DNA of 64,000 nucleotides from Candidatus Moraniibacteriota bacterium (GTDB lineage: Bacteria > Patescibacteriota > Minisyncoccia > Moranbacterales > UBA1568). Within the stretch, counting starts at the first letter, position 1. Each line of letters opens with the position of its first letter. Shown piece by piece: positions 717-64,000 of this stretch. The notes under the pieces were generated by a model. The model saw only the letters and a program-made list of their open reading frames with translations, searched no databases and was not told where the DNA came from. The stretch is taken from assembly GCA_052034935.1 (NCBI GenBank), contig JBPOIB010000001.1, forward strand, positions 74,746 through 138,745, written 5' to 3'. A program made the position numbers and the translations under genes.

Positions 717-726
717 CGAGATGAAT

Positions 727-821
727 CCCGTTAGAGATTGATGAAACAATAACCATGACTTAGGAATGGCATCAAAATGGAATAGGCAGGATGAGGTTAT
801 CAAATCTGTATCTCTAACGGG
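727..821. mobile_element. MITE-like palindromic-terminus element, copy A (95 bp)
   Basis: CCCGTTAGAGAT at 727-738 and its exact reverse complement ATCTCTAACGGG at 810-821 (12/12 bp). Both are flanked by the direct repeat ATGAAT (721-726 and 822-827). The internal 71 nt is related, in inverted orientation, to the element at 50425-50521. Confidence 0.5.
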
Positions 822-45601: not shown

Positions 45602-45669
45602 ACAGCTGCTCGGGAAAACGCTAGATTGAGAGCGGTCCGGTGCTTTCTGGCGGAGGGAGACGAAAATTT

Positions 45670-45746
45670 GGTCGCATAGTTCAGTTGGTTAGAACGTTCG
45701 ATTCACATTCGAAAGGTCCCTGGTTCGAGTCCAGGTGCGACCACCA
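45670..45746 (+). tRNA. tRNA-Val (anticodon CAC), CCA encoded
   Basis: A cloverleaf read by hand: acceptor GGTCGCA/TGCGACC, D-arm GTTC/GAAC, anticodon stem TTCGA/TCGAA with loop TTCACAT, and T-arm CCTGG-TTCGAGT-CCAGG. Confidence 0.85.
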
Positions 45747-45762
45747 AATATATTTCTTGAGT

Positions 45763-47088
45763 ATGCTCGACATCGGATTCATTCGGGACAACGAAGCGGC
45801 CATTCGTTCGGCAATCATGAACAAGAATCTCTCGCTGGATCTTGACCATCTGATTGCTGTAGACAAAGAGCGGCGCGAGCTCCTCCAAAAGATGGAGGAG
45901 TTGAAGTCGCTCAAGAATGACATCAATACTCTCATCCAATCAGCTGCCTCGCCGGAGGAACGGGCGGAAGTGATCGCGAAAGGGAAGGAGATTAAAGCTG
46001 CGCTCGAGGTGGTGGAGCCGGACTGGCGGCGAGTCAAGGCGGAATTCGATGTCCTCATGGCGGCAGTGCCCAATATCGTCTCTCCGGATACGCCGATTGG
46101 CAAAAGCGATGCGGAAAACAAGGAGGTGCTCGTTTCAGGTAATAAGCCGTCTTTTCCGTTCGCTCCGAAAACACATATCGAAATCGGCCATGACCTGGAC
46201 ATCCTTGACCTTGAGCGGGGTGCGAAGGTTGGCGGCTACAGAGGTTATTATGTGAAGAATGAGGGCGTTCTTCTCGTCATGGGACTCATGATGTATGCAC
46301 TCCAGAAGCTTGCCGCCAGAGGCTATCAGCCGATGATTCCACCGACTCTGGTCAAAGGGTTTCCACTTTTCGGCTCCGGCTATTTCAAGGGTCTCGACTA
46401 CGATCAGTCAATCGATGAAGTCTATGAAGTGGCGTCCGCTGACAAAGAGAGTGACGGCAGCATCTCGAAAGAACAGAAGTTCCTTGTTGGTACTGCCGAA
46501 CCATCGCTTCTTGCCTACTATAGCGACGAGGTGCTCGACGAGTCTGTCCTCCCGCTCCGGCTGGCGGGTTTCAGTCAGTGCTACCGTAGTGAGATTGGCT
46601 CTTATGGCAAGGATACCAAGGGGATGTACCGCGTCCATGAATTCATGAAGGTGGAGCAGGTTGTCATCGCGCCGGCCGATATCGCGCTCGCCGATTCACT
46701 CCAGGAAGAGATGATCGGCCTGTCCGAAGAGATGCATCAAGAGCTTGGGTTACCATATCGCAAGATCCAGATCTGCACTGGCGATATGAGCGCGGGGAAA
46801 TATCGTGCGTTCGATCTGGAGGCGTGGATGCCGGGAATGAACCGCTATGGTGAAACTGGCTCAGCCTCGAACTTCCTTGATTGGCAGGCCCGTCGGCTCA
46901 ATGTGAAGTATACTGAGGGAAGAACAGGTGAGAAGCGCTACGTGTATATGCTCAACAATACAGCACTTCCGACGCCGCGTGTCCTTATTGCCATTCTTGA
47001 AAATAATCAGGAGAGCGATGGGAGTGTTCGGGTACCGGAAGTTTTGCGGCCATTCGTGGGCAAGGATCGGATTCAGAAAAAAGGATAG
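45763..47088 (+). CDS. serS: Seryl-tRNA synthetase
   Basis: An N-terminal coiled-coil arm and class II core (RSEIGSYGKDTKGMYRVHEF, GETGSASN). The start is at ATG 45763; the upstream part of the track ORF runs through the tRNA. Confidence 0.9.
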   Translation: MLDIGFIRDNEAAIRSAIMNKNLSLDLDHLIAVDKERRELLQKMEELKSLKNDINTLIQSAASPEERAEVIAKGKEIKAALEVVEPDWRRVKAEFDVLMAAVPNIVSPDTPIGKSDAENKEVLVSGNKPSFPFAPKTHIEIGHDLDILDLERGAKVGGYRGYYVKNEGVLLVMGLMMYALQKLAARGYQPMIPPTLVKGFPLFGSGYFKGLDYDQSIDEVYEVASADKESDGSISKEQKFLVGTAEPSLLAYYSDEVLDESVLPLRLAGFSQCYRSEIGSYGKDTKGMYRVHEFMKVEQVVIAPADIALADSLQEEMIGLSEEMHQELGLPYRKIQICTGDMSAGKYRAFDLEAWMPGMNRYGETGSASNFLDWQARRLNVKYTEGRTGEKRYVYMLNNTALPTPRVLIAILENNQESDGSVRVPEVLRPFVGKDRIQKKG

Positions 47089-47153
47089 GTGGCATTGACC
47101 GGAAGGGTGGTTTTGGTACAATGCCTAAAGTTTTGATTTTGCCGGAAAAATTT

Positions 47154-47226
47154 GGGTGCGTAGCTCAGTCGGTAGAGCAGTGGCCTTTTAAGCCAACGGT
47201 CGAGGGTTCGATTCCCCCCGCACCCA
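47154..47226 (+). tRNA. tRNA-Lys (anticodon UUU), no encoded CCA
   Basis: Acceptor GGGTGCG/CGCACCC, D-arm GCTC/GAGC, anticodon loop CTTTTAA, and T-loop TTCGATT. There is one G-A at pair 27-43 and one A-C in the T-stem. Confidence 0.75.
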
Positions 47227-47236
47227 CAAAACGAAA

Positions 47237-50366: not shown

Positions 50367-50424
50367 AAACCGCTTCGACGTGGGATGATTGCTCCAGGTG
50401 GAGGCAGAGAAGAGCCCTATTGAC

Positions 50425-50521
50425 CCCGTTAGAGATAACGTGGGTTTTTCATGCGAAACGCCCTGCCGATAATGCCTGAGATGAAGCGTTTTCGATGCCT
50501 AATAACCGAATCTCTAACGGG
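50425..50521. mobile_element. MITE-like palindromic-terminus element, copy B (97 bp, inverted relative to copy A)
   Basis: CCCGTTAGAGAT at 50425-50436 and ATCTCTAACGGG at 50510-50521. It is flanked by TTGAC (50420-24) and G+TTGAC (50522-27); the right flank forms the -35 box of the downstream promoter. The interior shares GGCATC(G)AAAA / CCTGCC blocks with copy A in reverse orientation. Confidence 0.5.
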
Positions 50522-50522
50522 G

Positions 50523-50551
50523 TTGACAAAAAGCTCTTTTTTTGCTAGTAT
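50523..50551 (+). promoter_or_regulatory. Sigma70 consensus-like promoter TTGACA-N17-TAGTAT
   Basis: TTGACA at 50523-28 and TAGTAT at 50546-51, 30 nt upstream of the wzz-like ATG. The same TTGACAAAAG…TAGTAT architecture recurs at 54516 and 63733. Confidence 0.5.
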
Positions 50552-50581
50552 TCAACGTTACTTCATTATTACTCAAAGGCT

Positions 50582-51211
50582 ATGCCGATGAACAATGTTT
50601 TGGCTCTACTGTGGGGAAAAAAGGGGAGTGTCTTCCTTTTTGGTGTCTTCGTGTCCGCTGCGGTCTTCTTCGTTGAGACAGCGGTATCGCCGCGTTACGC
50701 TGTGCGAACCGACTTCATGGTGGTACAATCATCTGGCTCTCAGGACTTCTATACGCTTTTCAAATCGTCCGAATACCTGAGCAAGGTCCTTTCCGAATCG
50801 CTCTATAGCGAGCGCTTCATCAACGCCGTCATTGAGACGGGCAAGGTGAGCGCACAGGGATTCTTGCCGACCAATAAGAAAGACCGGCTCACTGCTTGGC
50901 GCTCGATGGTCGCGGTCGAAAAGAATATCGAACTCGGCATGCTTGCCGTGACCGTGAAGTCCGATACCGAGAAAGAGGCGTCGAAGACGATGGACGCGAT
51001 TTCGGATGTTCTCATTAACCGCAACAAAGAATTCCGCGGCGGCGATGAGAAGGCGATCGAGATCCGCATCCTCTCCGGTCCGATCAGCGACCGTAATCCG
51101 AACCCGAAAGACCTACTTGTACTCGCTCTCGCAGGGTTCATCGCCGGCGCTTTCATCCGCTCCGCCTGGATCGCGGTGAAAGTCATCGATACTTCAGCGA
51201 AACGAGGATAA
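50582..51211 (+). CDS. Wzz/chain-length-determinant-like protein (two TM, short periplasmic domain)
   Basis: An N-terminal TM followed by SPRYAVRTDFMVV (the P-x-Y-x-A…V pattern of Wzz N-termini), and a C-terminal TM (LLVLALAGFIAGAFI). Confidence 0.55.
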   Translation: MPMNNVLALLWGKKGSVFLFGVFVSAAVFFVETAVSPRYAVRTDFMVVQSSGSQDFYTLFKSSEYLSKVLSESLYSERFINAVIETGKVSAQGFLPTNKKDRLTAWRSMVAVEKNIELGMLAVTVKSDTEKEASKTMDAISDVLINRNKEFRGGDEKAIEIRILSGPISDRNPNPKDLLVLALAGFIAGAFIRSAWIAVKVIDTSAKRG

Positions 51212-51349
51212 TATTTCTGGAGAAAGAGGGGGCTCTCGCCTCCTCTGGACCATCTCTCTCGAGAACGAGGGGGTTGTTCCAGAGGATAGCGTCGAAAAAG
51301 TTCGTTCAAAACTTACTGCTTACAATCAATCAACACAAGGAGTCTTAGC

Positions 51350-52210
51350 ATGCGATTCACATCGCTCGCTCTCATGTCAGTCCTGACGGTGCTCGTTGGC
51401 TGTTCGTCACTTCCCCGCGATAGCGGCTTCGAAGTGCGGACGGTTGAAGCGACCGGCCGCCAGGAGCCGTGGCAGAACCGCGCGCTCAACCGCAGCGTGT
51501 TCGCCAAGAACGGCATCGCAGTGGTCTACGTCGCACTGCCGCAGCCGCTCCCGGAAAAGTGGAAGAAAGAATTCGTCGACACCGCCCGAACCTACGAGGT
51601 CCGGGAGGGACGGCGGAAAGTCTCGAAGTCGCTGGTCCGGGAAGTATTTCGCGCCGTCGCGACCTATGGTCCGAACGAGGTATCGATCTATGACGCCGTC
51701 GTCGATCGGGACAAGGGCTTCATGGTCCTCATCCCGGTTTCCGATCGGCGCCGGATTGAAGGGAAGTCCCTCCATATCTTGTCTTCGGACGGGAAGTGGG
51801 GGATGACGACCCTCGGTGTCATGCTCGAGTTCGAGAAGGGGTTCGCCCCGGACCGGATTCTCGCCACACCGAGCTCGCTCGTGACCCAAGTGATCCATCT
51901 TGATCCGGAAGGCGACGAGAATGCGAGGCGCATGCTTGATCGTCTGGTCAAGTCTTTCCCCGAGCCGTTCTGGTTCCGGGGCAAGGCCGAAGCCTACATC
52001 GGCAAAAGCGATGTGGTCACCGTCATCGCCGAATTCACTTCGGTCGACAGTGCAGCCGATCGGCTGATCTCGTGTACGAGCCTCAAGCTCGGACCGAATA
52101 CCGTCGCGGCACTCCCTCTCGTCGCGACACTCTATGCCTACCAGGCCGTGAGCGCGCTGACCAAGGAAGACTGCTACCAACCGATCCGTCTCCCGGATGC
52201 CCCGACATAA
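51350..52210 (+). CDS. Lipoprotein, unknown function
   Basis: A signal peptide with lipobox LVGCSS, 286 aa, and an AAGGAG Shine-Dalgarno. GC rises to ~62% from here. Confidence 0.55.
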   Translation: MRFTSLALMSVLTVLVGCSSLPRDSGFEVRTVEATGRQEPWQNRALNRSVFAKNGIAVVYVALPQPLPEKWKKEFVDTARTYEVREGRRKVSKSLVREVFRAVATYGPNEVSIYDAVVDRDKGFMVLIPVSDRRRIEGKSLHILSSDGKWGMTTLGVMLEFEKGFAPDRILATPSSLVTQVIHLDPEGDENARRMLDRLVKSFPEPFWFRGKAEAYIGKSDVVTVIAEFTSVDSAADRLISCTSLKLGPNTVAALPLVATLYAYQAVSALTKEDCYQPIRLPDAPT

Positions 52211-52374
52211 GGGCAGCCGGATCCGAGTCGGAGCGATCTGTAAAGAAAGGAGCTCATCCGTGAGCGACCCATCCGTTTTGAAACCGTCCAGGGATCAAGC
52301 GTGGGTCGCTCATATCGACCCACCTTTGTTCCTGGGTTTACCAAATGAACCTATGGCTGAAGGAGGCCGAAATC

Positions 52375-54354
52375 ATGACTGACTCTGTCCAATCCGGCGC
52401 TCCTAAAAGCGTCCAAACCCACGCGACGAGCGATCGTCCGTGGTACTTCCATCCTGTCGCAATCATCATCACTGCCGTCCTCATCGCCATCGTGGCAAGC
52501 TTCCTCACCTTCACCCCTCAGGGTGCGGCGTGGATGAAGTCCCTCCGGGCTTCGGGTACGGCTGTTCCGATGGCTGTGGCTCCCGCTGCTTCGGCTGCCG
52601 AGACGGCTGCCAGCGCTGCTGCCCAGGCTGAACCGCAACCGGCGGCAGCTGACGCAGCGACCGAACCCAAGACCTACACGGTCGAAAAGGACGACTGGCT
52701 CTCGCTGGTTTTCCCGAACGACTGGAAGTCTGTCTGCGAACTGAACCGCGACATCCTGAAGAAGGGTTGCGGTCACATCGTCGAGGGCCAGGTGCTGAAG
52801 CTCCCCGAAGGCGTCCAAGCCACGGAAAAGAGCGCCCGCGCCAGGAAGCCCCAAGGCAAAAAGGTCGTCAAGACCGAAAAGCCCCAGGCTTCGCGTGCGG
52901 TTCTGCCGAAGACAAACGCTGCAGGCGAAATCCTGTACGCGAGAGTCGGCGCGGCACCCCTGAACGGCTGCGGCAAGCGCGACATCGCTGATATCAGCAA
53001 GGAAGCATGGAATGTGCTCGGCCTGTCGGAAGACGACCAAGCTTACCTCGTGCTGAATGCTGACCTGAAGTACGGTCCGCGCATCAATGCCACGGCCCAT
53101 TCCGGCATCGTGCAGCTCGTGCCCGACATGCGTCTCGATCAGGTCACCTTCTGCCGCAAGGGCAAGGTGGTCGCGATCGGTCCCATGCGCACGGCCTGGA
53201 ATCAGGATACGGCGGTCTACGGCGAACGGTTCGTGCTTCCTTCCGGCAAGTTGCTGGTGTGGATGCGCAACTGCTTCAATTGGGTCATCCTCCCCGAGGA
53301 GAAGAAGGCACTTCCTGTGCCCCCTCCTCTCCCCGAGGAGCCCCCGATCGAGCCGCTGCCGCCCGAACTACCTGTCTCAGTGCCACTGCCTGTGGTCCCG
53401 CCGCCGACCGTCGCCGAAGCCCCCAAAGGCCTGTGCGATTGGATCGACATGGCTGGCGCCCTCGGCCAGCACCATGTCCCTCGTCAGAACGGGGACAAGG
53501 CAAGCTCTGACTTCCTCACCTTCGTCTTGGACTGCCAACAGCGCCTCGAAAGCAATGATGGTTCCTGGGGCATCGGTGGGAAGGCTGAATACTCTGCCTG
53601 GCATGGGACTGCCAACCGTGGTGTCGGCAAGTACGAAGGCTGGAACTACAAGGCGATGGTTTCGTACCGCCAGATTATGGACGAAGGGTACGACTGGGGT
53701 GTGGCCGCCGGCGTCGGGCATCAGCGCGAGCGCTACCATCAGGACAAGTACGCTTCTCGAAGCGACTATGACCTGGTGACCGTCTCGCTGGTCCATAACG
53801 ACTACCGTCGCCGCATGGCCGGTGAGACCTGGGACGTGGAACGCCAGTATTACGGCGGCATCACGATCCCGATCGCATCGGAGCTCAGCCACACGTGGAA
53901 CGGCGAGAAGATCGCCGACACGTCCGGTATGGGTCGCCTCAAGTTCGGCGTCCAAGCTGGCGCCCGCTGGTGGTTCTACGAGTCCCAAGATCTGCCGTTC
54001 CTGCCGTATCTCGAAGGCGGACTGTTCGTCCAGCATCCGACGAGCGCGTCGGGCAATGCCATGATCGGTATCGCTGATCCGGCCCGCATCTGTGGCATCG
54101 GCATCGGCATCGACCAGGACTTCCAGAACGGCGGCAACCCCGTCGGTGCCTGGGGATGGAACTGCGACCCCTTCCAGGGTGCTCGTGTCGTCCGCTCCAA
54201 GTACCGCAAGCATCAGGTCATTACCGATGCAGCGAGGAGGGGCGTCACGATCGAGGAGAAGGACGGGTATATCCAGAGCATCCGCTTTGGACCAGAATGG
54301 CTCAAGACGCAAGGTCTGACCATCGTGCCCGCTCCCGATTCGAGTAAGCAGTAA
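52375..54354 (+). CDS. Membrane-anchored LysM-domain protein with Pro-rich linker and large uncharacterised C-terminal domain
   Basis: GAAGGAGG Shine-Dalgarno 7 nt before ATG 52375. A TM helix, then LysM (YTVEKDDWLSLVFPN…GHIVEGQVLKLP), a linker PVPPPLPEEPPIEPLPPELPVSVPLPVVPPP, and a ~320-aa Trp/Gly-rich domain of unknown fold. Confidence 0.6.
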   Translation: MTDSVQSGAPKSVQTHATSDRPWYFHPVAIIITAVLIAIVASFLTFTPQGAAWMKSLRASGTAVPMAVAPAASAAETAASAAAQAEPQPAAADAATEPKTYTVEKDDWLSLVFPNDWKSVCELNRDILKKGCGHIVEGQVLKLPEGVQATEKSARARKPQGKKVVKTEKPQASRAVLPKTNAAGEILYARVGAAPLNGCGKRDIADISKEAWNVLGLSEDDQAYLVLNADLKYGPRINATAHSGIVQLVPDMRLDQVTFCRKGKVVAIGPMRTAWNQDTAVYGERFVLPSGKLLVWMRNCFNWVILPEEKKALPVPPPLPEEPPIEPLPPELPVSVPLPVVPPPTVAEAPKGLCDWIDMAGALGQHHVPRQNGDKASSDFLTFVLDCQQRLESNDGSWGIGGKAEYSAWHGTANRGVGKYEGWNYKAMVSYRQIMDEGYDWGVAAGVGHQRERYHQDKYASRSDYDLVTVSLVHNDYRRRMAGETWDVERQYYGGITIPIASELSHTWNGEKIADTSGMGRLKFGVQAGARWWFYESQDLPFLPYLEGGLFVQHPTSASGNAMIGIADPARICGIGIGIDQDFQNGGNPVGAWGWNCDPFQGARVVRSKYRKHQVITDAARRGVTIEEKDGYIQSIRFGPEWLKTQGLTIVPAPDSSKQ

Positions 54355-54382
54355 GTCCACAAGTCGGGGGAGTTCCCTCGTA

Positions 54383-54420
54383 GGGGCGGCGTCGATCACA
54401 CTCGATGCCGCCCTTTTTCT
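54383..54420 (+). terminator. Rho-independent terminator
   Basis: A 12-bp stem GGGCGGCGTCGA / TCGATGCCGCCC with loop TCACAC, followed by TTTTT. Confidence 0.6.
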
Positions 54421-54515
54421 TTTTCCGTCGCAGTAAGGTGGACAAGAGTAAAAAAAGCCGATTGCAGCAGTCATTTTGAGGCTCATGAAAGCCATTTTTT
54501 TATACTGATACGGGC

Positions 54516-54544
54516 TTGACAAAAGCCAGTTTTTGCTCTAGTAT
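54516..54544 (+). promoter_or_regulatory. Promoter TTGACA-N17-TAGTAT
   Basis: TTGACAAAAGCC…TAGTAT, ~85 nt upstream of the ATG at 54628. A strong hairpin (CCGGCATTTCCC-ggat-GGGAAATGGCG, 54563-54590) lies in the 5'UTR. Confidence 0.5.
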
Positions 54545-54627
54545 GTAGGGTCATCTTCCTTGTCCGGCATTTCCCGGATGGGAAATGGCGAACCTCTTTA
54601 CCAACCAGCCTTGAAAGGGCGTACACC

Positions 54628-55344
54628 ATGAAGACCTCCGTCTCCATCCTGATGGCTTTCGCCATCGCCATCCTGCCGGGTCTCGCGCTCGCGCAGGCCA
54701 AGCCCACCGTCGCCGTCGATGGCAACACCGATGCCGTGGGCAAGCTGCTTCCGACCGGTGGCACCAGCATGACCGCCACCTCCGACGGCAAGACCACGAC
54801 CCTGACCTTGCGCCAGCTGTACGCCTTCGGCGAAGCCGGCCTCGGCAAGGGCGAGAACGGCGCCAAGAAGAAGCTCGACATGGAGCAGGGCACCGCGTAC
54901 ATGCTGCGGGCCAATTCCCGCGACTGGCGCGGCGGCCGGACCGCGGCAAGCGTCAAGCTCGACGACGACAAGGGTGCGGTCATCCTGGCCAAGGGTGTGA
55001 TCACCGACAACACGGTGACGTTCACGTTCCCGAGCGGCCGCGCGAAGCCGGGCGATCCGTTCGACTGCAAGAGCACCAATTTCCTGGTGCAGCCCAAGAG
55101 CGGCAACCGTGCCGATCGTGCCTGGCTCGGCCACCCCGGCTGGGCCGCCGCCAACACGGCGCCGAACATCGGCGACTACATGGTCCTCGCGGGTGACGAT
55201 GCCCGTTTCCCGGCGACCGCGCTCTGCTATGACGCGAACGGCAAGCTGGTGCCGCTGACCCCGGCCATGCGCGCCGAGCTCTCGAAGATCATCAACAAGC
55301 CCGAAGGCGCCGACAAGGCGACCCGGGTGGCCGCGGACAACTGA
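54628..55344 (+). CDS. Secreted protein, unknown function
   Basis: A signal peptide (MKTSVSILMAFAIAILPGLALAQA), 238 aa, no known motif. High-GC codon usage. Confidence 0.6.
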   Translation: MKTSVSILMAFAIAILPGLALAQAKPTVAVDGNTDAVGKLLPTGGTSMTATSDGKTTTLTLRQLYAFGEAGLGKGENGAKKKLDMEQGTAYMLRANSRDWRGGRTAASVKLDDDKGAVILAKGVITDNTVTFTFPSGRAKPGDPFDCKSTNFLVQPKSGNRADRAWLGHPGWAAANTAPNIGDYMVLAGDDARFPATALCYDANGKLVPLTPAMRAELSKIINKPEGADKATRVAADN

Positions 55345-55367
55345 CCTGCAAGCCTGCCGCAAGCCCG

Positions 55368-55412
55368 AAGGGCTCCCAACCGAACGCAACACGTTCACCG
55401 GGAGCCCTTTTT
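55368..55412 (+). terminator. Rho-independent terminator (long loop)
   Basis: AAGGGCTCCC … GGGAGCCCTT followed by TTTTT. Confidence 0.5.
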
Positions 55413-55439
55413 CATACCTAAAAATAGCGTTTTCATTCA

Positions 55440-55468
55440 TTGACAAGAAAGACTTTTTATAGTATCAT
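55440..55468 (+). promoter_or_regulatory. Promoter TTGACA-N17-TATCAT
   Basis: TTGACAAGAAAG…TAGTATCAT, ~105 nt upstream of ATG 55573. Confidence 0.45.
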
Positions 55469-55572
55469 GGGGAGTCAATTCCGGGCTTGAATAAAGCCTG
55501 GCATTGGCAGGTTTTTCAAGTCCCTTCCCATCTAGTCTGATTTATTTTCAGGCCACAACTCAGGAGTTTGCC

Positions 55573-56118
55573 ATGCAAGCCACACGTCCCTTTTTCTCGT
55601 TCCGCATCGCCTGCGCCGTACTGCTTCTCATCGGCGTCGCGTTCCTTGCGAACCCGGCCCGTGCGGAGACCGTCAAGGTCGAAGGCAATGCGCCCACCCC
55701 GACCATCGTGAGCATCGTGGCCAAGGGTGCCGGCCAAGGTGAAGTCACCATCACCGGTGTCCAGTTGAAGTCCAGCCTGTCCTACTGCCTCATCGGCGTG
55801 GGGCGCGGCAACTGGTACGGCACTGCGACCAAGGTCCAGCTCGAGAAGATCGGCTGCGCCAAGGCCGTCAGCGGTTCGGTAACCGTGCCGATCCGTCTCG
55901 ATGCCAAGCGCTACGAAGCGAACGGCAGCGTCATCGGCTACATCCCGATCGTGACCGACGCGAACGGCGTCATCATCGATTGGCCGCAGAAGCCCGTCGG
56001 TGCTCTCACGTTCGAGCGCACGAGCGGCAAGCCGGATGAGGCCATCGCCGTCTTCTGGGCGACGAACGGCCAACCAAAGCTCGCCACGGCCGAACAAGCC
56101 ATGACCATCAACGACTAA
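55573..56118 (+). CDS. Secreted protein, unknown function
   Basis: A signal peptide ending ANPARA, 181 aa, and an AGGAG Shine-Dalgarno. The start was moved to ATG 55573 from the upstream alternative in the track. Confidence 0.6.
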   Translation: MQATRPFFSFRIACAVLLLIGVAFLANPARAETVKVEGNAPTPTIVSIVAKGAGQGEVTITGVQLKSSLSYCLIGVGRGNWYGTATKVQLEKIGCAKAVSGSVTVPIRLDAKRYEANGSVIGYIPIVTDANGVIIDWPQKPVGALTFERTSGKPDEAIAVFWATNGQPKLATAEQAMTIND

Positions 56119-56127
56119 GGAGAACGC

Positions 56128-56877
56128 ATGTTCCATCGACTCATCGGAGCGCTCCTTGCGCTCCTTGTCTCGGGCTTCGTCTGGTCCGCGCCCTGTGCAC
56201 CGGGCTTGCCTGAGCGCCTCATCCCAGAGGCGGGGAAGGAGGGCACCGCCTTCTTTGCGAGCGAGACCATCAAGGACGAGTACCAGAATCCGGCCTGGAT
56301 GGCCAGGCAGAAGTTCGACCGTCTGGTTGGCATGTGGAACGCCGTGACGGTGTACCCCTGCGACCGCGGCCGGCCGGCGACGATCGAGTTCCACTCGTTC
56401 GAGATCGTCCGGCTCGACAAGACGACTGGCCGTCTCGTGCCCGAGCTCACCCTCGTGTTCGATGGTTCCACTGGCTCGTCGTTCGACGACATCAGCCAAT
56501 GGAAACGCGCCCCCGAATGGTGGGTGAACGGCCGGGCTGATCGCGAGCCTTCGGTCGTCAGCGTGAAAAGCGGCGTGTTCCGGGTCGACCTGAAGTCGGT
56601 GCCCGACAACATCGTCCACATGTGGACGAGCCGCATCGCTGCCAAAGCTGGCGAGATCTACGGTATCCGGGCGAAGGTCCGGATCGCCGGCGATGCCCGC
56701 TTGCAGGTCGCCATGGATTACTGGAAGGGCTTCGAAAGCCCCGAAGGAAGGCCCTGGAAGCCGGCTTGTGAAGGCATGGCCAACTGCGAAGCTTGGCTCG
56801 GCGACTGGTACGGCGATACCGGTGGCAAGTTCGTCACTGTCGTCTCGCCGCGGTCACTCCTCGGCAAGTCCTACTAG
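56128..56877 (+). CDS. Secreted protein, paralog A of a tandem pair
   Basis: A signal peptide and AAGGAG Shine-Dalgarno. It shares TAFFA(S/T)ETI…EYQ, LVGM(W/L)NAVTVYPCDRG, GDARLQ…MDYW(K/R)G, and C(E/Q)AWL…GDT.GKFVT blocks with 57051-57818. Confidence 0.65.
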   Translation: MFHRLIGALLALLVSGFVWSAPCAPGLPERLIPEAGKEGTAFFASETIKDEYQNPAWMARQKFDRLVGMWNAVTVYPCDRGRPATIEFHSFEIVRLDKTTGRLVPELTLVFDGSTGSSFDDISQWKRAPEWWVNGRADREPSVVSVKSGVFRVDLKSVPDNIVHMWTSRIAAKAGEIYGIRAKVRIAGDARLQVAMDYWKGFESPEGRPWKPACEGMANCEAWLGDWYGDTGGKFVTVVSPRSLLGKSY

Positions 56878-56895
56878 CAGCAATGCTGCTCTCTC

Positions 56896-56935
56896 GGCCC
56901 CAATGGATTTACAATCCGGCGGGGCCTGTTTTTTT
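56896..56935 (+). terminator. Rho-independent terminator
   Basis: GGCCCC …19 nt… GGGGCC followed by TGTTTTTTT. Confidence 0.5.
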
Positions 56936-57050
56936 ATCCGCTCATACCCTTGACAAAATATAAAATAAGGAGCATTATATAAAGTCATTTTCCAGACACT
57001 TCCGTTTGGAAGTGACGCCCTTTCAGCCCCTTACCAATAGGAGTTCCGCC

Positions 57051-57818
57051 ATGAAGGCAATCTGGAAATCATTTTTCGCTTTCGTTTTCGTCCTGTCCGG
57101 CCTGAGCCCGGCCATGTCCCAGACCCTGTCTGGCGTCTGCCCAGCACCGGTGCCGACCGCGAGTCCGACCATCCCGCAAGGCGTGGCGACTGGCGACACG
57201 GCCTTCTTCGCGACCGAGACGATCGCGCCGGAGTATCAGCCGCCCTCGAACATGTACAACCAGGGCTTCAACTACCTGGTGGGCATGCTGAATGCGGTGA
57301 CGGTCTATCCGTGCGATCGCGGCAAGGCAGCCAAGATCGAACTGAACAGCCTGCGCGTCATCCAGCGTGATTTCGTTGGCGTCGAAACGGTGGTGCAGCA
57401 CGTCACCTTCGGCCGCGGCTGGCAGAAGCCCAACAGTCTGGTCTACAAGACCTTTTACCGCGAACCGGGCTGGTTCACGAGCGGTGCGCCCGAAGCGCAG
57501 CCGACGCTCGCCTCGATCGCGCAGCAGACCTACGCCGTCGACCTGCGGTCCATCCCGAAGGGTATCTTCCATGCCTGGACGAATCCGCGGACGCCGGCCA
57601 TACCCGGCTATGCCTATTTCGTCGAAGTGGTGGTCCGGGTGACGGGTGATGCGCGCCTGCAGCTCGGCATGGACTACTGGCGCGGCAGCGACTCGGACTA
57701 CACCGGCTGGACGCCCGGCTGCACCGGTTCGAACAACTGCCAAGCGTGGCTGTCGAACTGGCTCGGCGACACGAAAGGCAAGTTCGTGACCTGGCGGGCG
57801 CCGTCGATGGCCTTCTGA
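57051..57818 (+). CDS. Secreted protein, paralog B of a tandem pair
   Basis: A signal peptide (MKAIWKSFFAFVFVLSGLSPAMSQ) and an AGGAG Shine-Dalgarno. It is a paralog of 56128-56877, and has its own promoter-like TTGACA at 56950. Confidence 0.65.
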   Translation: MKAIWKSFFAFVFVLSGLSPAMSQTLSGVCPAPVPTASPTIPQGVATGDTAFFATETIAPEYQPPSNMYNQGFNYLVGMLNAVTVYPCDRGKAAKIELNSLRVIQRDFVGVETVVQHVTFGRGWQKPNSLVYKTFYREPGWFTSGAPEAQPTLASIAQQTYAVDLRSIPKGIFHAWTNPRTPAIPGYAYFVEVVVRVTGDARLQLGMDYWRGSDSDYTGWTPGCTGSNNCQAWLSNWLGDTKGKFVTWRAPSMAF

Positions 57819-57861
57819 CGACTCCTGCGAGATTCCATTCTCGCGTACTCGCCTGATGACA

Positions 57862-57900
57862 AGCCTCACTTTTCGCAACCACGAAGGGTGAGGCTGTTTT
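57862..57900. terminator. Bidirectional terminator between convergent genes
   Basis: AGCCTCAC …18 nt… GTGAGGCT followed by a T-run. It sits between the + gene ending 57818 and the - gene ending 57905. Confidence 0.5.
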
Positions 57901-57904
57901 ATTT

Positions 57905-59299
57905 CTAGTAAGAATCCTGCAGCTCGCGGGGGAGCGAGTGATGGAAGAGGGCGAGGAAACCGCCGACGACGATCGCGAGGATCCACTGGACCGGGGTATT
58001 CTTGAAGACATTGTCGGAGAGGCTTGCGATGACGAGGGTCGCGAGGAGGAGTAGGAGAAGGACTGCCATGTTCTTCAGGCTGTGGCTCGGGGAAAGGCGC
58101 TTCACCTGGATGATCGGAAAGGCGAAAGTGACGAGATAGAGCACAAGGACACCGAGACCGACCAGGCCGCCTTCGACATAGAACTTCACGAAATCGTTGT
58201 GGGACTCGTTCGAGCCGAAACGTTCGCCCCGCAGCTGCTCGGAGGAGATGCGAAAGGTGTCGAGGCCGCTGCCGTAGCGGACTCGCTCTTCAAGTTGGGT
58301 CTTCAAGATCATGTCGTGCCAGAGGTTTTGCCGCCAGACGATCGATGAGTCGGCCGTCGGATTGAGCGCTTCGACGACGCGCTCCTTCACGGCCGGAACG
58401 AAAGCGGTGAGCACGATCGGGAGCAGGATGAGCGGCAGGAGGAGAAAACGAAAGCGCCAAAGCGCGAGGAGGAGTAGGAAGACAAAGAGCGCGACCCACG
58501 CGATGCGCGCGAACGTGAGGAGGAGCGTGAAGAGGACGAGGCTGATATAGAGGAGCGTGAGGAGTCGCGCACCGTCTTTCCGGGCGTAGACGATCCCGTA
58601 GATGGTCGCGACGGCGGCCACGGTGAAGAGGTAGAGACTGAAGACATTCGGATGGCTGAAGGTGCCGAAGATGCGGAGAGCGGAAACGTTCTCGTCGGAG
58701 AGTCCGATGCCGAAGGCGAACTGGTAGAGTCCGAAGGTAATCGGGATGAGACTTGAAATGAAGATCGCCATGAGAAGCCGCCGGTAATCGCGGTAGCGCT
58801 CCACACTCGCATAGGCGATGAAGCCGACGACGAAGAGGTCGAAGATGCGAAGCGCTTCCTGAGCCGTGCTCGACGGTGAGATCGAATAGACGAGGGTGCC
58901 GAGACCCCAGGTGATGACGAGGCCGTAGGGGACGACGAGCGCATAGCGGGTGAGCGCGCGGGCGTGGAGGAGGATGAAGACGATGCCGAAGCCGGCGATG
59001 CCGAGGCCGAGGAGCTGGGAAAGCGAGAGCGACAGTCCGAAGAGATCGAGCGCGAGGTATTGGGACGAATAATCGAGCGACATGCGGACCACGATGAGCG
59101 TCATGAGGAGCGCGAGCGGATTCCGGAAGAGCGCGACAATCCCGGCGATGCCCGCCATGAGCGCGACCGGGAGGAGAAGTGAGACTTTGGCGAAAACCGC
59201 GAGGAGTGCGAAAAGCGAGAATAAGGCGAGTGAAACGAGATAGGCGCGCGGGTCGGCCCAGATCGGTGTCTCTTTCAGCGCGGAAAGCTCGGGATTCAT
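57905..59299 (-). CDS. O-antigen ligase / Wzy_C-family polytopic membrane protein
   Basis: ~12 TM helices, with RIFGTFSHPNVFSLYLF matching the Wzy_C motif R..G.....H.N..S.YL. Confidence 0.7.
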   Translation of the reverse strand: MNPELSALKETPIWADPRAYLVSLALFSLFALLAVFAKVSLLLPVALMAGIAGIVALFRNPLALLMTLIVVRMSLDYSSQYLALDLFGLSLSLSQLLGLGIAGFGIVFILLHARALTRYALVVPYGLVITWGLGTLVYSISPSSTAQEALRIFDLFVVGFIAYASVERYRDYRRLLMAIFISSLIPITFGLYQFAFGIGLSDENVSALRIFGTFSHPNVFSLYLFTVAAVATIYGIVYARKDGARLLTLLYISLVLFTLLLTFARIAWVALFVFLLLLALWRFRFLLLPLILLPIVLTAFVPAVKERVVEALNPTADSSIVWRQNLWHDMILKTQLEERVRYGSGLDTFRISSEQLRGERFGSNESHNDFVKFYVEGGLVGLGVLVLYLVTFAFPIIQVKRLSPSHSLKNMAVLLLLLLATLVIASLSDNVFKNTPVQWILAIVVGGFLALFHHSLPRELQDSY

Positions 59300-59958
59300 G
59301 ATGGTTTTTTCCAGACAAGCGTATACGTCATCGCGAGCCCGAAAAAGCGGTTTGGGATGAGCTTGAAGTTGTCGATACCGGCTTCTTTGGCGAGGGCGGA
59401 GAGTTCCGGACCGGTGAGGAGTCTCATATAGTCGCCGGCAGCCCAGCCTTTGCCGAGCCTCGTCGCGACCCAGTCGAAACCAGCTTTCGGAAGCAGGATG
59501 TGAAGGAGTGGAATCCGGGTGTGGATCTCGATCGGGAAATGCCGGTTCGGCATGGTGAGATAACCGCGCTTTCCCACGCGGTAGAGCTCAGTAACGAAAG
59601 CAAGCTGCTGGTCGCGTTCGCCGACGTGCTCGATGACGGCGTTCGAGTAGGCGATGTCAAACTGATTATCGGTGAACGGTAGTTTTGTCCCGTCGGCCGA
59701 AACTGCCGTGACCGACGGGTAGCGATCCTGGAATGCACTGAGATCAGATTCGATCGCGACGGCGGTGATATTTTCCGGATGCGTGTAGTGTTGCTCAAGG
59801 TAGTTATCGGACGGCGAGTATTCGGTGACGTTCACGCCAACATCGACAATCCGGTCATCTGGGCCCGGAGTCATGAGAGCGAGAAATTGAGCCCATTTCT
59901 TGGTGCGGCTTTTTTCCGAGACGGATGCGGCGAGCGCTTCGATCAATGGGAGGGGCAT
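59296..59958 (-). CDS. Class I SAM-dependent methyltransferase
   Basis: IVDVGVNV (motif I-like) …FDIAYSNAVIEHV (motif II/III). The stop overlaps the ligase start (ATGA). The start is uncertain: ATG 59958 is chosen, with upstream alternatives to 60021. Confidence 0.65.
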   Translation of the reverse strand: MPLPLIEALAASVSEKSRTKKWAQFLALMTPGPDDRIVDVGVNVTEYSPSDNYLEQHYTHPENITAVAIESDLSAFQDRYPSVTAVSADGTKLPFTDNQFDIAYSNAVIEHVGERDQQLAFVTELYRVGKRGYLTMPNRHFPIEIHTRIPLLHILLPKAGFDWVATRLGKGWAAGDYMRLLTGPELSALAKEAGIDNFKLIPNRFFGLAMTYTLVWKKPS

Positions 59959-59998
59959 AGGGTAGGAAGAATCAAAAGGATTCAGTATACTGCATGAT

Positions 59999-61210
59999 AT
60001 GCGCGTGCTTCTCATCAACAAGTTCCACTACCTGAAAGGCGGGGCGGAACGGGCATATTTCGACACTGCCCATATTTTAACAGAAAACGGCCATGAGGTC
60101 GCTTTCTTTGCCATGAAGCATCCGGAGAATCTCACGACCCCGTGGCAGCGGTTTTTTGTCTCGCAGGTTGACTACCATGACGAGCGCGCGGGACTCTGGA
60201 CCAAACTCCGAGCTGCGGCGCATATCATTTGGAACTTCGAAGCGGCCCGGAATCTCGAAGCACTCATTCTCGAGTGGAAGCCCGATGTCGCCCATCTGCA
60301 CAATATCTATCATCAGCTCTCACCCTCGATTCTCTGGACGCTGCGGAAGCATAAGGTGCGGGTCGTCATGACGCTTCACGACTACAAGCTCATCTCGCCG
60401 AACTATAGTCTTCTGGTGCGCGGCAAGGTCTGGGATTCGACGAGTGGTGTCTGGGCGATTTTCGATCAGGCGGTCCAGAATTCGACGTTGAAAAGCGCGA
60501 TTTGCGCTTTCGAAAAATGGATTCACGGGTTTCTTCGAAGCTACAGTAAGGTTGACATGTATCTCGCGCCGAGCCGTTTCCTCATCGAGCGTTTCCGCCA
60601 GGCGGGCTTTCATCATCCGATTAAGCATATCGTCCAGCCGATCCGCCCCTTTCCACCAGAGCCGGAGTATCAGGAGGGCGGCTACTTTCTCTATTTAGGA
60701 CGCCTCGCCGAAGAGAAAGGCGTAGCGACGCTTATTGAAGCTGCGTGGGAGCTTCAGAATGAGGTGAAGATAAAAATCGTCGGGAACGGCCCGGATGAGG
60801 CGAAGCTGCGGGCTTTAGCTAAAGGACTCGGTAATATCGAGTTCCTCGGCTACAAGACTGGAGAGGAGTGGGAAGCGGTGCTCCGTGGCGCCCGCGCCCT
60901 TGTCTTACCCTCACTTTGGTATGAGAACATGCCCTATGTCATCCTCGAGGCACTGTCGCGCGGCAAGCCCGTCATCGCCTCGCGCATGGGCGGCATCCCG
61001 GAGCGGGTTATCGAGGGCGTGAGCGGCTGGCTTTTCGAAGCGGGCAATTCCAACGATCTCGTCCGGGCGATACGGAAGCTGATGCTGTTTCCGTCGCCGG
61101 AGAAACTTTCCGAGACGTGCTATAAAAGTGTTTCGGATGCTCGGCCGGAGAGCTATTATGAAGAATTGATGAAAGTCTACTCGGGTCCGCGCATTGATCC
61201 GCCCCTGTAA
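59999..61210 (+). CDS. Glycosyltransferase family 1 (GT4-type)
   Basis: An N-terminal GT4 fold, and C-terminal YLGRLAEEKG…LPSLWYENMPYVILEALSRGKPVIASRMGGIPE. Confidence 0.8.
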   Translation: MRVLLINKFHYLKGGAERAYFDTAHILTENGHEVAFFAMKHPENLTTPWQRFFVSQVDYHDERAGLWTKLRAAAHIIWNFEAARNLEALILEWKPDVAHLHNIYHQLSPSILWTLRKHKVRVVMTLHDYKLISPNYSLLVRGKVWDSTSGVWAIFDQAVQNSTLKSAICAFEKWIHGFLRSYSKVDMYLAPSRFLIERFRQAGFHHPIKHIVQPIRPFPPEPEYQEGGYFLYLGRLAEEKGVATLIEAAWELQNEVKIKIVGNGPDEAKLRALAKGLGNIEFLGYKTGEEWEAVLRGARALVLPSLWYENMPYVILEALSRGKPVIASRMGGIPERVIEGVSGWLFEAGNSNDLVRAIRKLMLFPSPEKLSETCYKSVSDARPESYYEELMKVYSGPRIDPPL

Positions 61211-61294
61211 GGGTCACTTATCGACCCTTGCAATTTTCTATAATTCGTGCTATACTTTTAGACGTGTCAAATTTTTGTTCCTTAGGAGTTGATT

Positions 61295-61501
61295 TTGAGT
61301 GAAAAAAGGCATTACCGTAACCGGTATCCTGAGCTTGAGGCGGATGCAAAACACCGCCGTTCGTTGCGTCGCATCAGCTGGGGCGCAGCAATCATCTGCG
61401 TCGCGCTCGTTGGTGCGTGCATCTGGATTGTCCTCGCAGCCCAGAGTGAATCAATCACCGTCGAGGATCCCTTTCCAACCGGGAATGTGTGGAGCAGATA
61501 A
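61295..61501 (+). CDS. Small single-TM protein (TTG start), hypothetical
   Basis: An AGGAG Shine-Dalgarno 6 nt before TTG. 68 aa, with a basic N-terminus then a TM helix (AAIICVALVGACIWIVLAA). Confidence 0.3.
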   Translation: MSEKRHYRNRYPELEADAKHRRSLRRISWGAAIICVALVGACIWIVLAAQSESITVEDPFPTGNVWSR

Positions 61502-61514
61502 GTCTGCAAAGAGT

Positions 61515-61556
61515 AGGGCCCGAATGCAAACGCGTTCGGGCCCTCAAAATTTTTTA
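61515..61556. terminator. Bidirectional rho-independent terminator
   Basis: A 10-bp stem AGGGCCCGAA / TTCGGGCCCT with a 10-nt loop, flanked by an A/T run. It lies between convergent genes. Confidence 0.65.
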
Positions 61557-61576
61557 TACGAAGGAGTGGCGGGACT

Positions 61577-63688
61577 TCAATTCTCCGCGATACGAAGGCG
61601 CGAATCGAGAATGCGGAAATCATTGCGGTCGGGGAAGGCAAGGAGCGGATTGATGTCGAGTTCTTCAATCTCCGGAAACTCGATGGCAATTTGCGAGAGA
61701 CGGGCGATGTATTCTTTGAGCCGTTCCAGATCGATCGGGTCGCTGCCGCGCGCACCGAGGAGAAGTGGTAAGCTTTTGAGCTCACCGAGCATCTCATCGA
61801 TGTCCGACGGCAGAAGCGGTGCGAAACGCATCGCGACATCCTTGAAAGTTTCGACGTAAATGCCGCCGAGGCCAACGACGACGAGCGTGCCGAGGCCCGG
61901 CTCCTTCTTCAATCCGAGGAGGAGCTCTCGCCCTCCGGTCTTGGCCATCTCAGCGATGGTTGCCCCCTCAATGCGAGCGTCGGGAACATTGGCCTGTACG
62001 GTCGCGATGAGGTGTTCGAAGGCTTGATCGGCTTCATCCGGATCGATACCGAGGAGTACGCCACCGACGTCAGATTTGTGGATGATATCGGGCGATGCGA
62101 TCTTCAGGACCACCGGAGTACCGAGGGATTCGGCGAAATGCCGCGCCTCTTCGGCGGTTGTCACGAGCGCGCTTTTCAAGAAGGGGAAATCGGCGCATTT
62201 GAGGAATTCGGCCGCCTGGTATTCGCCGAGCGAGAATTGTTTTTTTGACCGGACCTCAGTCAGGATCGCCTTTGCTTTTTCAATCTCCATCGGAAAGCTG
62301 GTAGGCGACTCGCTTTTCGCTTCGCGTTTCATCCGGGCGAAACGAGCGAGAGTCCCGAGCGCCCGCGCACCGCTTTCGGGATAGAGTAGGTTCGGAATCC
62401 GACCTTGTTGGAGGATCCGCTGGCCCTTGCCGACGAGCCGGTCGCCGGAAAACACAGTCACGATCGGGAGCGCGGGGTATTTCTTCCGGAGCCGCAGAAT
62501 CGCTTCGGCTGTTTTTTCCGCCTCGGTCATGGTCTGCGGCGTGAGGACAACGAGGATCATGTCGACCGAATCGTCACTGGCAACAACGCCAAGCGCCTGT
62601 TCGTAGCGCGCGGCGAGCGCATCGCCGAGGACATCGATCGGATTCAGGGTATTGGCGGCCGGAGGGAGGATCGCTTTGAGTGCTTCGACCGTCGCCGGAT
62701 CAAGCGAGGCGAGCGTGAGACCGCTCTCGATCGCGGCATCCGTCGCGAGGACGCCGAAGCCGCCCGCGTTCGTCACGATAGCCACTCGGTCGCCTTTCGG
62801 GAGCGGGTTCTGGTCCAAGACGAGGAGGAGCTCCATGAGCTCCTGGAAATTTCCGGCCCGGAACATCTTCGCCTGGCGGAACAGCGCATCATAGGCTGCA
62901 TCGCTCCCGGCCACTGCACCGGTGTGCGAGCTCGAGGCATGGGTTCCCGCTTCGGTCGTGCCGCTTTTCAAGGCGACGATTGGCTTCGATTTCTTTGCGC
63001 TGATATTGCTTCGGCCGAGCGTGATGAAGCCGGCGGCATCCAGGATGTTCTCGGTATACATGCCGATCGTCCGCGTATCCTCATCCTTGAAAAGATGCTC
63101 GAGGAGGCGCTTCTCATCAAGTACCGCTTTGTTGCCGATCGAGGCGAAGAGCGAGAAACCGAGTTTGTCCTGCGTGAGGTCGAGGAAAGCGCTCGTCAAA
63201 GCGCCGCTCTGCGAGAAGAACGCGATGCTGCCGGTTGCCGGAATCGACGAGGCGAAGGAGGCGTTGAGGTATTGGCTCGGATGGATGAAGCCGAGACAGT
63301 TCGGACCGAGGACGGAAATATTGAACTCTTCGGCGATTGATTGGATCTCGGCTTCGAGCGCCGCGCCGGCCGCGCCGCTTTCCTTGAAACCGGCCGAGAT
63401 GATGACGGCCGCGCGGACCATATGTTCGCCCGCCTCGCGGAGCACGGAGGGGACGATCTTGGCGGGGACGATGATGATCGCGAGCTCAGCCTTGCCCGGA
63501 ATGGCATCGAGGGACGGATAGCATGGCCGATCGAAGAGCTCATCGGTTTTCGGATTGATGAGAAAAACCTCGCCGGTGTAGTCGCTTTTAACGAGGTTCT
63601 TGGTGACGTCGTTGCCGACGGATCCCGGCGTCGTAGAGGCACCGATCACCGCGACCGAGCGGGGAGAGAAAAGGCTATGGAGAGACAT
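61577..63688 (-). CDS. Acetyl-CoA synthetase (ADP-forming), fused alpha-beta (NDP-forming acyl-CoA synthetase family)
   Basis: An N-terminal CoA-binding Rossmann domain (SVAVIGAS…PGSVG), a succinyl-CoA-synthetase-like His region (…GHTGAVAG…), and a C-terminal ATP-grasp. The start is at ATG 63688; the track ORF begins at an upstream GTG. Confidence 0.8.
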   Translation of the reverse strand: MSLHSLFSPRSVAVIGASTTPGSVGNDVTKNLVKSDYTGEVFLINPKTDELFDRPCYPSLDAIPGKAELAIIIVPAKIVPSVLREAGEHMVRAAVIISAGFKESGAAGAALEAEIQSIAEEFNISVLGPNCLGFIHPSQYLNASFASSIPATGSIAFFSQSGALTSAFLDLTQDKLGFSLFASIGNKAVLDEKRLLEHLFKDEDTRTIGMYTENILDAAGFITLGRSNISAKKSKPIVALKSGTTEAGTHASSSHTGAVAGSDAAYDALFRQAKMFRAGNFQELMELLLVLDQNPLPKGDRVAIVTNAGGFGVLATDAAIESGLTLASLDPATVEALKAILPPAANTLNPIDVLGDALAARYEQALGVVASDDSVDMILVVLTPQTMTEAEKTAEAILRLRKKYPALPIVTVFSGDRLVGKGQRILQQGRIPNLLYPESGARALGTLARFARMKREAKSESPTSFPMEIEKAKAILTEVRSKKQFSLGEYQAAEFLKCADFPFLKSALVTTAEEARHFAESLGTPVVLKIASPDIIHKSDVGGVLLGIDPDEADQAFEHLIATVQANVPDARIEGATIAEMAKTGGRELLLGLKKEPGLGTLVVVGLGGIYVETFKDVAMRFAPLLPSDIDEMLGELKSLPLLLGARGSDPIDLERLKEYIARLSQIAIEFPEIEELDINPLLAFPDRNDFRILDSRLRIAEN

Positions 63689-63732
63689 TTTTTGTGTTGG
63701 TTCACTTCCTAGTTTACCTGAGGCGGAGGCAA

Positions 63733-63761
63733 TTGACAAAAGCACCGCTCCCTGGTAGTAT
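63733..63761 (+). promoter_or_regulatory. Promoter TTGACA-N17-TAGTAT
   Basis: TTGACAAAAGCACC…TAGTAT, 40 nt upstream of ATG 63801. Confidence 0.5.
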
Positions 63762-63800: not shown

Positions 63801-64000
63801 ATGAAAGAAACGCTCCTCCACCAGTGGAATACCTGGAAAAACGGCCTGCTCGCGCTCGGTCTTGTTCTCGCTGTCCTCGGTCCGGTTGTCGCTTTCGGCG
63901 GCTCGAAGGCGATCTATGTCGATAAGGATAATGACGGTTCGGAAGACGGTTCGCGCAACCACCCGTACCAGAGTATCGACAAGGCACTCCGCAAAGCCAA
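63801..64000 (+). CDS. Secreted protein, N-terminal fragment (3' end outside window); possible parallel beta-helix family
   Basis: A signal/TM segment (LLALGLVLAVLGPVVAF), then KAIYVDKDNDGSEDGSRNHPYQSIDKAL, which resembles the N-terminus of pectin-lyase-fold/DUF1565 proteins. Confidence 0.45.
   Translation, partial: MKETLLHQWNTWKNGLLALGLVLAVLGPVVAFGGSKAIYVDKDNDGSEDGSRNHPYQSIDKALRKA

Follow-up and report, generated by a model that had tools for sequence, protein, structure and literature searches.

Conserved, probably ordinary strong sigma-70-type promoters upstream of envelope and secreted-protein genes in an uncultured Candidatus Moraniibacteriota bacterium

The promoters that most resemble those described here are the sigma-70/sigma-A promoters of Escherichia coli and Bacillus subtilis, including those with an extended -10 element (TGn). 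A spacer made up of four regions and a pyrimidine-purine-pyrimidine (YRY) 'start' triplet have recently been described across 49 bacteria, and the resulting gain in strength was shown in E. coli (Kuo et al., Nucleic Acids Res 2025, PMC12641261). In that work, the tract next to the -35 was 'mainly thymine', and the optimal YRY triplet in E. coli was centred 7-8 nt after the -10. We found nothing specific to promoters in Patescibacteria in the literature. Here, we examined five promoter sites in a 64 000 bp stretch of an uncultured Candidatus Moraniibacteriota bacterium (positions 74 746 to 138 745 of contig JBPOIB010000001.1, assembly GCA_052034935.1), hereafter the window. The sites lie in an envelope locus between 50 and 64 kb, upstream of genes for a Wzz-like protein, secreted proteins and a beta-helix protein. 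A preliminary description of this sequence had proposed either a co-regulated, highly expressed regulon or a promoter cassette spread by recombination. We conclude that the five sites are probably neither regulon signals nor copies of a cassette, and instead represent conserved, ordinary strong sigma-70-type promoters, each serving its own envelope or secreted-protein unit.

All five sites are on the forward strand and begin with an exact TTGACA -35, at 50523, 54516, 55440, 56950 and 63733. The spacer is 17 bp in every case, and the -10 is TAGTAT at three sites (50523, 54516 and 63733), TATCAT at 55440 and CATTAT at 56950. All are intergenic and oriented towards a gene, the start codon of which is 30-105 nt away, and the genes are those that had been named in the preliminary description. 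That description gave the pattern TTGACAAAAG-N13-TAGTAT for three loci, with variants ahead of the genes at 55573 and 57051. Both variants are real, and the hexamers and the spacer length hold at all three loci, but the first four spacer bases are not identical throughout. At 50523-50551 the sequence is TTGACAAAAAGCTCTTTTTTTGCTAGTAT, with the opening 10-mer TTGACAAAAAG, and differs from the pattern at one position (spacer AAAA, not AAAG). The exact pattern is present only at 54516-54544 and 63733-63761, and had no matches in the 100 dinucleotide shuffles of the window with which the TTGACA-N17-TAGTAT sites were compared. Sites of the form TTGACA-N16-18-TAnnAT number seven in the window, against 0.11 expected. 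The TG of an extended -10 is found at 50523 and 63733 and is absent from 54516, 55440 and 56950. A further TAGTAT, at 55460, is separated from the 55440 -35 by just 14 bp; because orthologues carry TACACT or TAGACT at a spacing of 17 bp, we take the hexamer at that spacing to be the -10.

These sites share with sigma-70/sigma-A promoters the TTGACA, the 17 bp spacer, a TAnnAT-type -10, the TG at two of them and their intergenic location upstream of genes. They differ in that the -10 is TAGTAT, TATCAT or CATTAT rather than TATAAT, and in being known from sequence alone, in an uncultured lineage. Hexamers of alternative sigma factors (extracytoplasmic function, sigma-28 and sigma-54) were not found at the five sites, the hexamers of which are the housekeeping consensus.

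Homologues of the 238 amino acid (aa) secreted protein encoded downstream of 54516 were used to find syntenic loci. These came from nine other genomes, also uncultured (L002, L003, L005, L007, L009, L011, L013, L014 and L015), with protein identities of 45-90%, and from an identical contig (L001). All five promoters are found at orthologous places in the relatives, including genomes that have diverged to 45-55% protein identity, and so is a sixth promoter, ahead of the next (second) GT4 glycosyltransferase gene just past the window end. Across 5-10 orthologous loci the hexamers vary little or not at all, and conservation is lost upstream of the -35. The promoter of the 238 aa gene has been kept in 10 loci, as has that of the Wzz-like gene, the latter including its spacer and the first approximately 25 transcribed bases. 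An equal promoter layout precedes a 44% identical Wzz-like orthologue in a distant locus (L027). The consensus-strength promoters that had been noted ahead of envelope and secreted-protein genes are therefore conserved, as orthologous sites, in nine related genomes. That the sites are functionless and resemble the promoter consensus by chance is hardly credible. Loose hexamer scans do return false positives (13 found against 6.4 expected), but the exact matches occurred in none of the shuffles, and the sites are intergenic, correctly oriented and retained in nine other genomes in which the adjacent upstream DNA is not.

Between orthologous promoters, 7-15 of the 17 spacer bases agree (at least 9 in all but one of the five), as do as many as 36 of 40 bases downstream. 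When the promoters in the window were compared with one another, they had 4-10 of the 17 spacer bases in common and near-random flanks. As each promoter keeps its own spacer at orthologous sites while the hexamers are invariant, we conclude that the promoters are old, separately maintained and vertically inherited. This contradicts the proposal of a cassette copied by recombination, by gene conversion or by carriage on a transposable element of the miniature inverted-repeat type (MITE). What had suggested copying was the presence of three identical hexamer pairs in one genome, one of them abutting the end of a MITE-like element. The -10 of the Wzz-like promoter is TACTAT in most relatives and TAGTAT in this lineage, a shift that made the three sites look alike, and the uniformity of the promoters in this genome thus appears to be partly incidental. 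The paralogous sites are alike only in their hexamers, every promoter occupies its orthologous place at 45-55% protein identity, relatives in which the MITE site is empty have the Wzz-like promoter, and the other MITE copy in the window (726-822) has no promoter at its end. Copying is therefore very improbable. Gene duplication was also rejected as the source of the similarity among promoters and leaders, since only the 249 and 255 aa secreted proteins are paralogues; the 238, 181 and 255 aa proteins have no detectable relationship.

In most of the promoters, TTGACA is followed by an A-run, a short GC patch, a T-run and a TG or G-rich stretch that leads into the -10, and GTCAT, GTCAAT or GTTAC is found 4-5 bases past the -10. 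The cluster-type promoters can be written in shorthand as TTGACAAAA. This order resembles the published four-region spacer (PMC12641261) in having an AT tract by the -35, a GC-leaning patch, a second AT tract and a G-rich or TG region, and the CAT or TAC triplet within GTCAT or GTTAC lies near the expected start, as does the YRY element. The match is not complete. The triplet here is centred approximately 9 nt after the -10, the promoter at 63733 has none centred at 8-10 nt, and 63733 also lacks the second AT tract.

The same layout is found outside the envelope locus. The tRNA-Lys promoter of the relatives has the spacer AAAG..TTTTTG, a layout matching that of the cluster promoters. A further 80 metagenome loci, obtained via HtrA (43-68% identity, 39% GC), were used for lineage-level promoter statistics only. 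In these more distant relatives (0.94 Mb), an A directly follows the hexamer in 16 of 26 (62%) exact TTGACA-N17-TAnnAT sites. Six of the genes downstream were examined: two code for HtrA, two for secreted proteins, one for a cold-shock protein and one for a Wzz-like orthologue.

Each promoter heads a unit of its own, and an intrinsic terminator lies upstream of four of the five; none is evident for the Wzz-like unit. The promoter of the 209 aa Wzz-like gene (50582-51211) spans 50523-50551, with the -35 at 50523-50528, the spacer AAAAGCTCTTTTTTTGC, the TG at 50543-50544 and the -10 at 50546-50551. The promoter of the 238 aa gene (54628-55344) is at 54516-54544, with the spacer AAAGCCAGTTTTTGCTC. 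Upstream of it, at 54382-54425, is the terminator of the unit containing a 669 aa membrane protein gene, which has a 14 bp stem with 9 GC pairs and a T-run and is kept in relatives. The promoter at 55440-55468 precedes an operon for the 181 and 249 aa secreted proteins (55573-56118 and 56128-56877) and is itself preceded by a terminator at 55370-55412. The promoter at 56950-56978, with a terminator at 56896-56936 before it, serves the gene for the 255 aa protein (57051-57818). The last promoter (63733-63761), with the spacer AAAGCACCGCTCCCTGG and the TG at 63753-63754, precedes the beta-helix gene, which starts at 63801 and continues past the window end. It stands back to back with a reverse-strand promoter (63711-63739, TTGTCA-N17-TAAACT) of the ADP-forming acetyl-CoA synthetase gene (ATG at 63688), and the two -35 hexamers overlap by 5 bp inside the palindrome AATTGACAA. 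This arrangement is conserved in L002, L003, L005, L009 and L015, where the reverse-strand promoter is TTGTCA-N17-TACTAT or similar. Judging from this overlap, two polymerases could not occupy 63711-63761 simultaneously.

Stem-loops at the 5' end of an mRNA are a known type of stabiliser, as in the ompA leader of E. coli. The 238, 181 and 255 aa genes each have a leader that opens with a predicted stem-loop, its first base being the G of GUCA. In the 238 aa gene leader (54550-54627) it begins at GUCAU, approximately 6 nt past the -10, and the other two begin at 55474 and 56984. Fold z-scores range from -1.6 to -3.7 and some compensatory changes are present; in the 238 aa gene leader, 3 of the 21 predicted pairs have compensatory changes among eight genomes. 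As in ompA, the stem-loop starts at the predicted 5' end of a probably abundant envelope or secreted-protein mRNA, or no more than a few bases from it, and is followed by a ribosome-binding site, which is strong in relatives (AAGGAG(G) on all three leaders) and of AGGAG type on two of the three leaders here. The site of the 238 aa gene is degenerate here (GAAAGGGCG), against AAGGAGG in relatives. Unlike that of ompA, the stem-loops here are predicted only. Rfam searches at the gathering threshold returned two tRNAs only, so the conserved leaders do not belong to known RNA families.

The four secreted-protein genes (54628-57818) have a GC content at third codon positions (GC3) of 0.83-0.91, against approximately 0.55-0.65 in housekeeping genes. 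In the adjacent envelope genes (51350-54354 and 57905-59299) it is raised to 0.75-0.81, against approximately 0.6 elsewhere. The high GC3 of these two sets of genes accounts for the rise in GC content at 52-58 kb. L005 and L003 show the contrast as well, and L009 a weaker form of it, despite differing genomic GC; it may reflect translational selection in very highly expressed genes. High expression of the surface and secreted genes, as the preliminary description had supposed, is thus plausible in view of this codon bias and of units composed of terminator, promoter, stem-loop and Shine-Dalgarno sequence.

A dedicated regulon would require a shared regulator, or a specialised near-housekeeping sigma factor, that reads features beyond the hexamers and switches the envelope and secreted-protein genes together. 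The signals available to it are TTGACAAAAG, a start region of the form GTCAWTTC or GTTAMTTCAT, and the palindrome TGGCTTrTATAAGCCA. We consider such a regulon unlikely. The hexamers follow the housekeeping consensus, the shared extra bases form a generic strong-promoter layout that relatives also have at their tRNA-Lys, HtrA, cold-shock and other promoters, and there is no regulator gene in the locus. The preliminary description had held that a motif found throughout the genome would speak against a regulon; at the level of the lineage it is largely general, and within the window the A-run is found only in the 50-64 kb cluster. There, all five promoters have the A-run, compared with none of seven other promoter candidates (suf, pyrD, 18699, 20825, greA, tRNA-Val and tRNA-Lys; Fisher P = 0.0013).

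The palindrome may be a regulator binding site. It stands 12 or 21-23 bp ahead of the -35, distances that differ by about one helical turn, at the promoters of the 238 aa, 181 aa and second GT4 genes in several genomes. In the approximately 0.2 Mb of close-relative sequence searched, copies are at 10881 in L005, 10860 in L013, 9837 and 10801 in L015, 9855 in L009 and 9789 in L014. In the window it is present only at 54480-54493, as GGCTCATGAAAGCC, 22 bp upstream of the 54516 -35, so most cluster promoters here lack it. Its spacing varies, and in L001 an inserted MITE puts 65 bp between palindrome and promoter at the second GT4 gene, without evident loss of the gene. The palindrome keeps co-regulation alive at a modest probability, by a motif other than the one originally proposed. 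A sigma-54 reading of it was rejected, as the GG-N10-GC spacing recalls sigma-54 promoters but the TTGC of a -12 element is missing and the sequence is fully palindromic. Co-regulation also draws on the conservation of the Wzz-like and GT4 promoters, which reaches through the start region, and on the motifs GUCAW, CCCTTTCCAAC and AAGGAG that the leaders of non-homologous secreted-protein genes have in common.

Several observations fit less easily with ordinary strong promoters. The restriction of the A-run to the cluster in the window could mark a distinct class, for example in strength, and its adenines depart from the mainly thymine tract of the published layout. A conserved palindrome stands upstream of several of the promoters. 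The Wzz-like promoter is conserved from the -35 to approximately +25, even in the 44% identical orthologue, which exceeds what plain constitutive expression needs. High GC3 could have a cause other than expression level, and the start sites, promoter strength, sigma factor and constitutive behaviour are ones that we infer from the observed sequence features, conservation and codon bias. Taking these points into account, we still consider ordinary strong sigma-70-type promoters to be the likely explanation.

From established sigma-70 biology, the perfect TTGACA would be read by sigma region 4, and the optimal 17 bp spacer would set sigma region 2 on TAnnAT. The extended -10 TG at 50523 and 63733 would be read by sigma region 3. 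The four-region spacer would raise promoter strength and the YRY triplet would mark the start, while the upstream terminators would insulate four of the five units. The 5' stem-loops would stabilise the three secreted-protein mRNAs, two of which carry AGGAG-type sites. The outcome would probably be very high, largely constitutive expression, and the likeness among the sites would be a convergence on one optimum that involves neither shared ancestry nor a special regulatory code. If so, the standard promoter grammar of bacteria, with the recently described spacer layout as part of it, also holds in an uncultured and little-studied lineage. In genomes of this kind, promoters and highly expressed surface proteins could then be predicted with TTGACA-AAAr-N5-6-TTTTTG-n-TAnnAT as a template, and the secreted proteins of unknown function that are driven by these promoters are plausible candidates for major components of the cell surface.

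Correia elements and other bacterial MITEs can carry or create promoter hexamers (review PMC10969869). The MITE-like element next to the Wzz-like promoter is the most interesting lead from this locus. It is 99 bp (50424-50522) and has perfect 13 bp terminal inverted repeats (CCCCGTTAGAGAT and ATCTCTAACGGGG), no coding capacity and a long hairpin fold (z = -5.2). It is flanked by direct repeats of TTGA at 50420-50423 and 50523-50526, so that the whole site spans 50420-50526. Six relatives (L003, L005, L007, L011, L013 and L015) have an equal promoter (..ccataTTGACAaaagg..) at an uninterrupted, empty site, and L002 has the insertion too. As the right-hand TTGA copy restores TTGACA, the element must have inserted inside the -35 hexamer of the Wzz-like promoter, and, as the promoter is present where the site is empty, it did not carry the promoter in. 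The link between one promoter and a MITE, which had been reported as physical proximity, is therefore real and closer than was claimed. The left-hand TTGAC was considered as a second promoter and rejected, as no -10 follows it.

A second copy in the window, at 726-822, shares these ends over 12-13 bp (T/CCCCGTTAGAGAT) but is unrelated in its interior. A direct repeat of TGAA (or ATGAAT) flanks this copy, which lies exactly at the start codon of xseA (822-2402), which encodes the exonuclease VII large subunit. Hence, the original ribosome-binding site of xseA is now approximately 100 bp upstream. In the same genome, approximately 1.8 kb past the 3' end of the window (L001 15508-15572), a 65 bp element with the ends CCCTGTGAGAAT and ATTCTCACGGGG and a TTGA duplication lies inserted within the -35 hexamer of the second GT4 promoter and parts that promoter from its upstream palindrome, GCTTATATAAGCCA. 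This site is empty in the closest relative, L002.

Related palindromic elements with CCCCG…CGGGG ends were found at L003 approximately 9765-9870, L011 9764-9872, L056 9081-9184, L019 20378-20485, L022 6103-6158 and L032 5476-5537. Four of these six are flanked by TTGA, the right copy of which forms TTGAC(A/T)-N17-TAnnnT, and two by TGAA. Those in L003 and L011 are at the promoter of the 238 aa gene, and those in L056 and L019 are at promoter-like TTGAC sites in distant loci. With the elements at 50424-50522 and in L001, there are six apparently independent insertions into a -35, while three copies, representing two independent sites, have TGAA flanks instead. Short hairpins with CCCGTTAGAA arms are present at L022 15048 and L032 14497. 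A copy in L036 has no direct flanking repeats, indicating that not every insertion duplicates its target. Related ends are found at many loci, and a transposase-bearing parent element was not seen in the sequence searched. Inverted ends of the CCCGTTAGA type were found beside or between tRNA-like sequences at L011 1119-1233 and L015 161-273, and may represent an element inserted at a tRNA gene.

We tentatively suggest that this element family (ends CCCCGTTAGARAT…ATYTCTAACGGGG, 4 bp TTGA duplication) prefers the -35 of strong promoters, and that its insertions rebuild the promoter and cut off the DNA upstream. The recurrent insertion may stem from a preference for TTGAC targets, with copies surviving in intergenic DNA alone, or from a genuine preference for promoters. 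Like Correia elements, the elements here are short and non-coding, have terminal inverted repeats and target duplications, lie directly upstream of genes and touch promoter hexamers. Unlike them, they do not bring promoter elements of their own; the element enters an existing -35, leaves the promoter intact and swaps only the upstream DNA. If this is correct, the -35 box doubles as a transposon target, and the insertions would be a natural means of uncoupling promoters from upstream regulatory DNA without killing them.

The envelope locus begins with genes for a BNR/sortilin-like protein, ribosome recycling factor, the RseP protease and the 209 aa Wzz-like protein. These are followed by genes for a lipoprotein, a small open reading frame (ORF), the 669 aa membrane protein and the four signal-peptide proteins of 238, 181, 249 and 255 aa. 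The locus ends with genes for a Wzy-like polymerase, a methyltransferase, a GT4 glycosyltransferase, the acetyl-CoA synthetase (on the opposite strand) and the beta-helix protein. Of the labels in use, 'Wzz-like' is weak, as the match to the CpsC/Wzz-type family TIGR01006 (E = 2.8e-6) is far below the family cut-off and that to Pfam Wzz has E = 0.41. 'Secreted' agrees with the signal-peptide-like N-termini, and 'beta-helix' is supported by Beta_helix and NosD domains in the full-length gene in L001. The four secreted proteins have no Pfam or NCBIfam match. The predicted structure of the 238 aa protein is a beta-sandwich (pLDDT 74.7), and this model has no significant match among solved structures. 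A look-up of the exact sequence of the 669 aa protein gave no match, and its annotated start probably lies too far upstream.

Between the lipoprotein and 669 aa genes, at 52260-52379, is a conserved small ORF of approximately 38-40 aa (MSDPxVLKPxRxQAWVAHIDPPLFL…), the stop codon of which overlaps the likely true start of the 669 aa gene (ATGA). Its start codon is enclosed by a perfect 12 bp inverted repeat, GTGAGCGACCCA…TGGGTCGCTCAT (fold z = -4.75), an arrangement that looks like translational coupling or leader-type control. A conserved hairpin, CCTCTGGA…TCCAGAGG, lies between the Wzz-like and lipoprotein genes (51242-51326) and has a compensatory change in L013 (CTCTGAA/TTCAGAG). The conserved CTTACTGCTTACAAT that follows it is a possible -10, and has no recognisable -35. 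Upstream of the GT4 gene (ATG at 59999), within 59985-59999, a TATACT ends 8 nt before the ATG in a 40 bp divergent intergenic region, and the mRNA of this gene may be leaderless or nearly so.

Outside the cluster, tRNA-Val and tRNA-Lys (45599-45746 and 47095-47227) have a separate promoter each. That of tRNA-Lys (47154-47227) is TTGACC-N16-TACAAT with a TG, at 47095-47122 on the forward strand. A long ORF at 45640-47088 overlaps tRNA-Val, and the start of seryl-tRNA synthetase is thus probably near 45763. The public labels of the related genomes L011-L015 conflict, four being 'uncultured Bdellovibrionales bacterium' and one 'Candidatus Moranbacteria bacterium'. Distant relatives (L085 and L092) came from 0.1 µm groundwater filtrates, which better fits an organism of the candidate phyla radiation.

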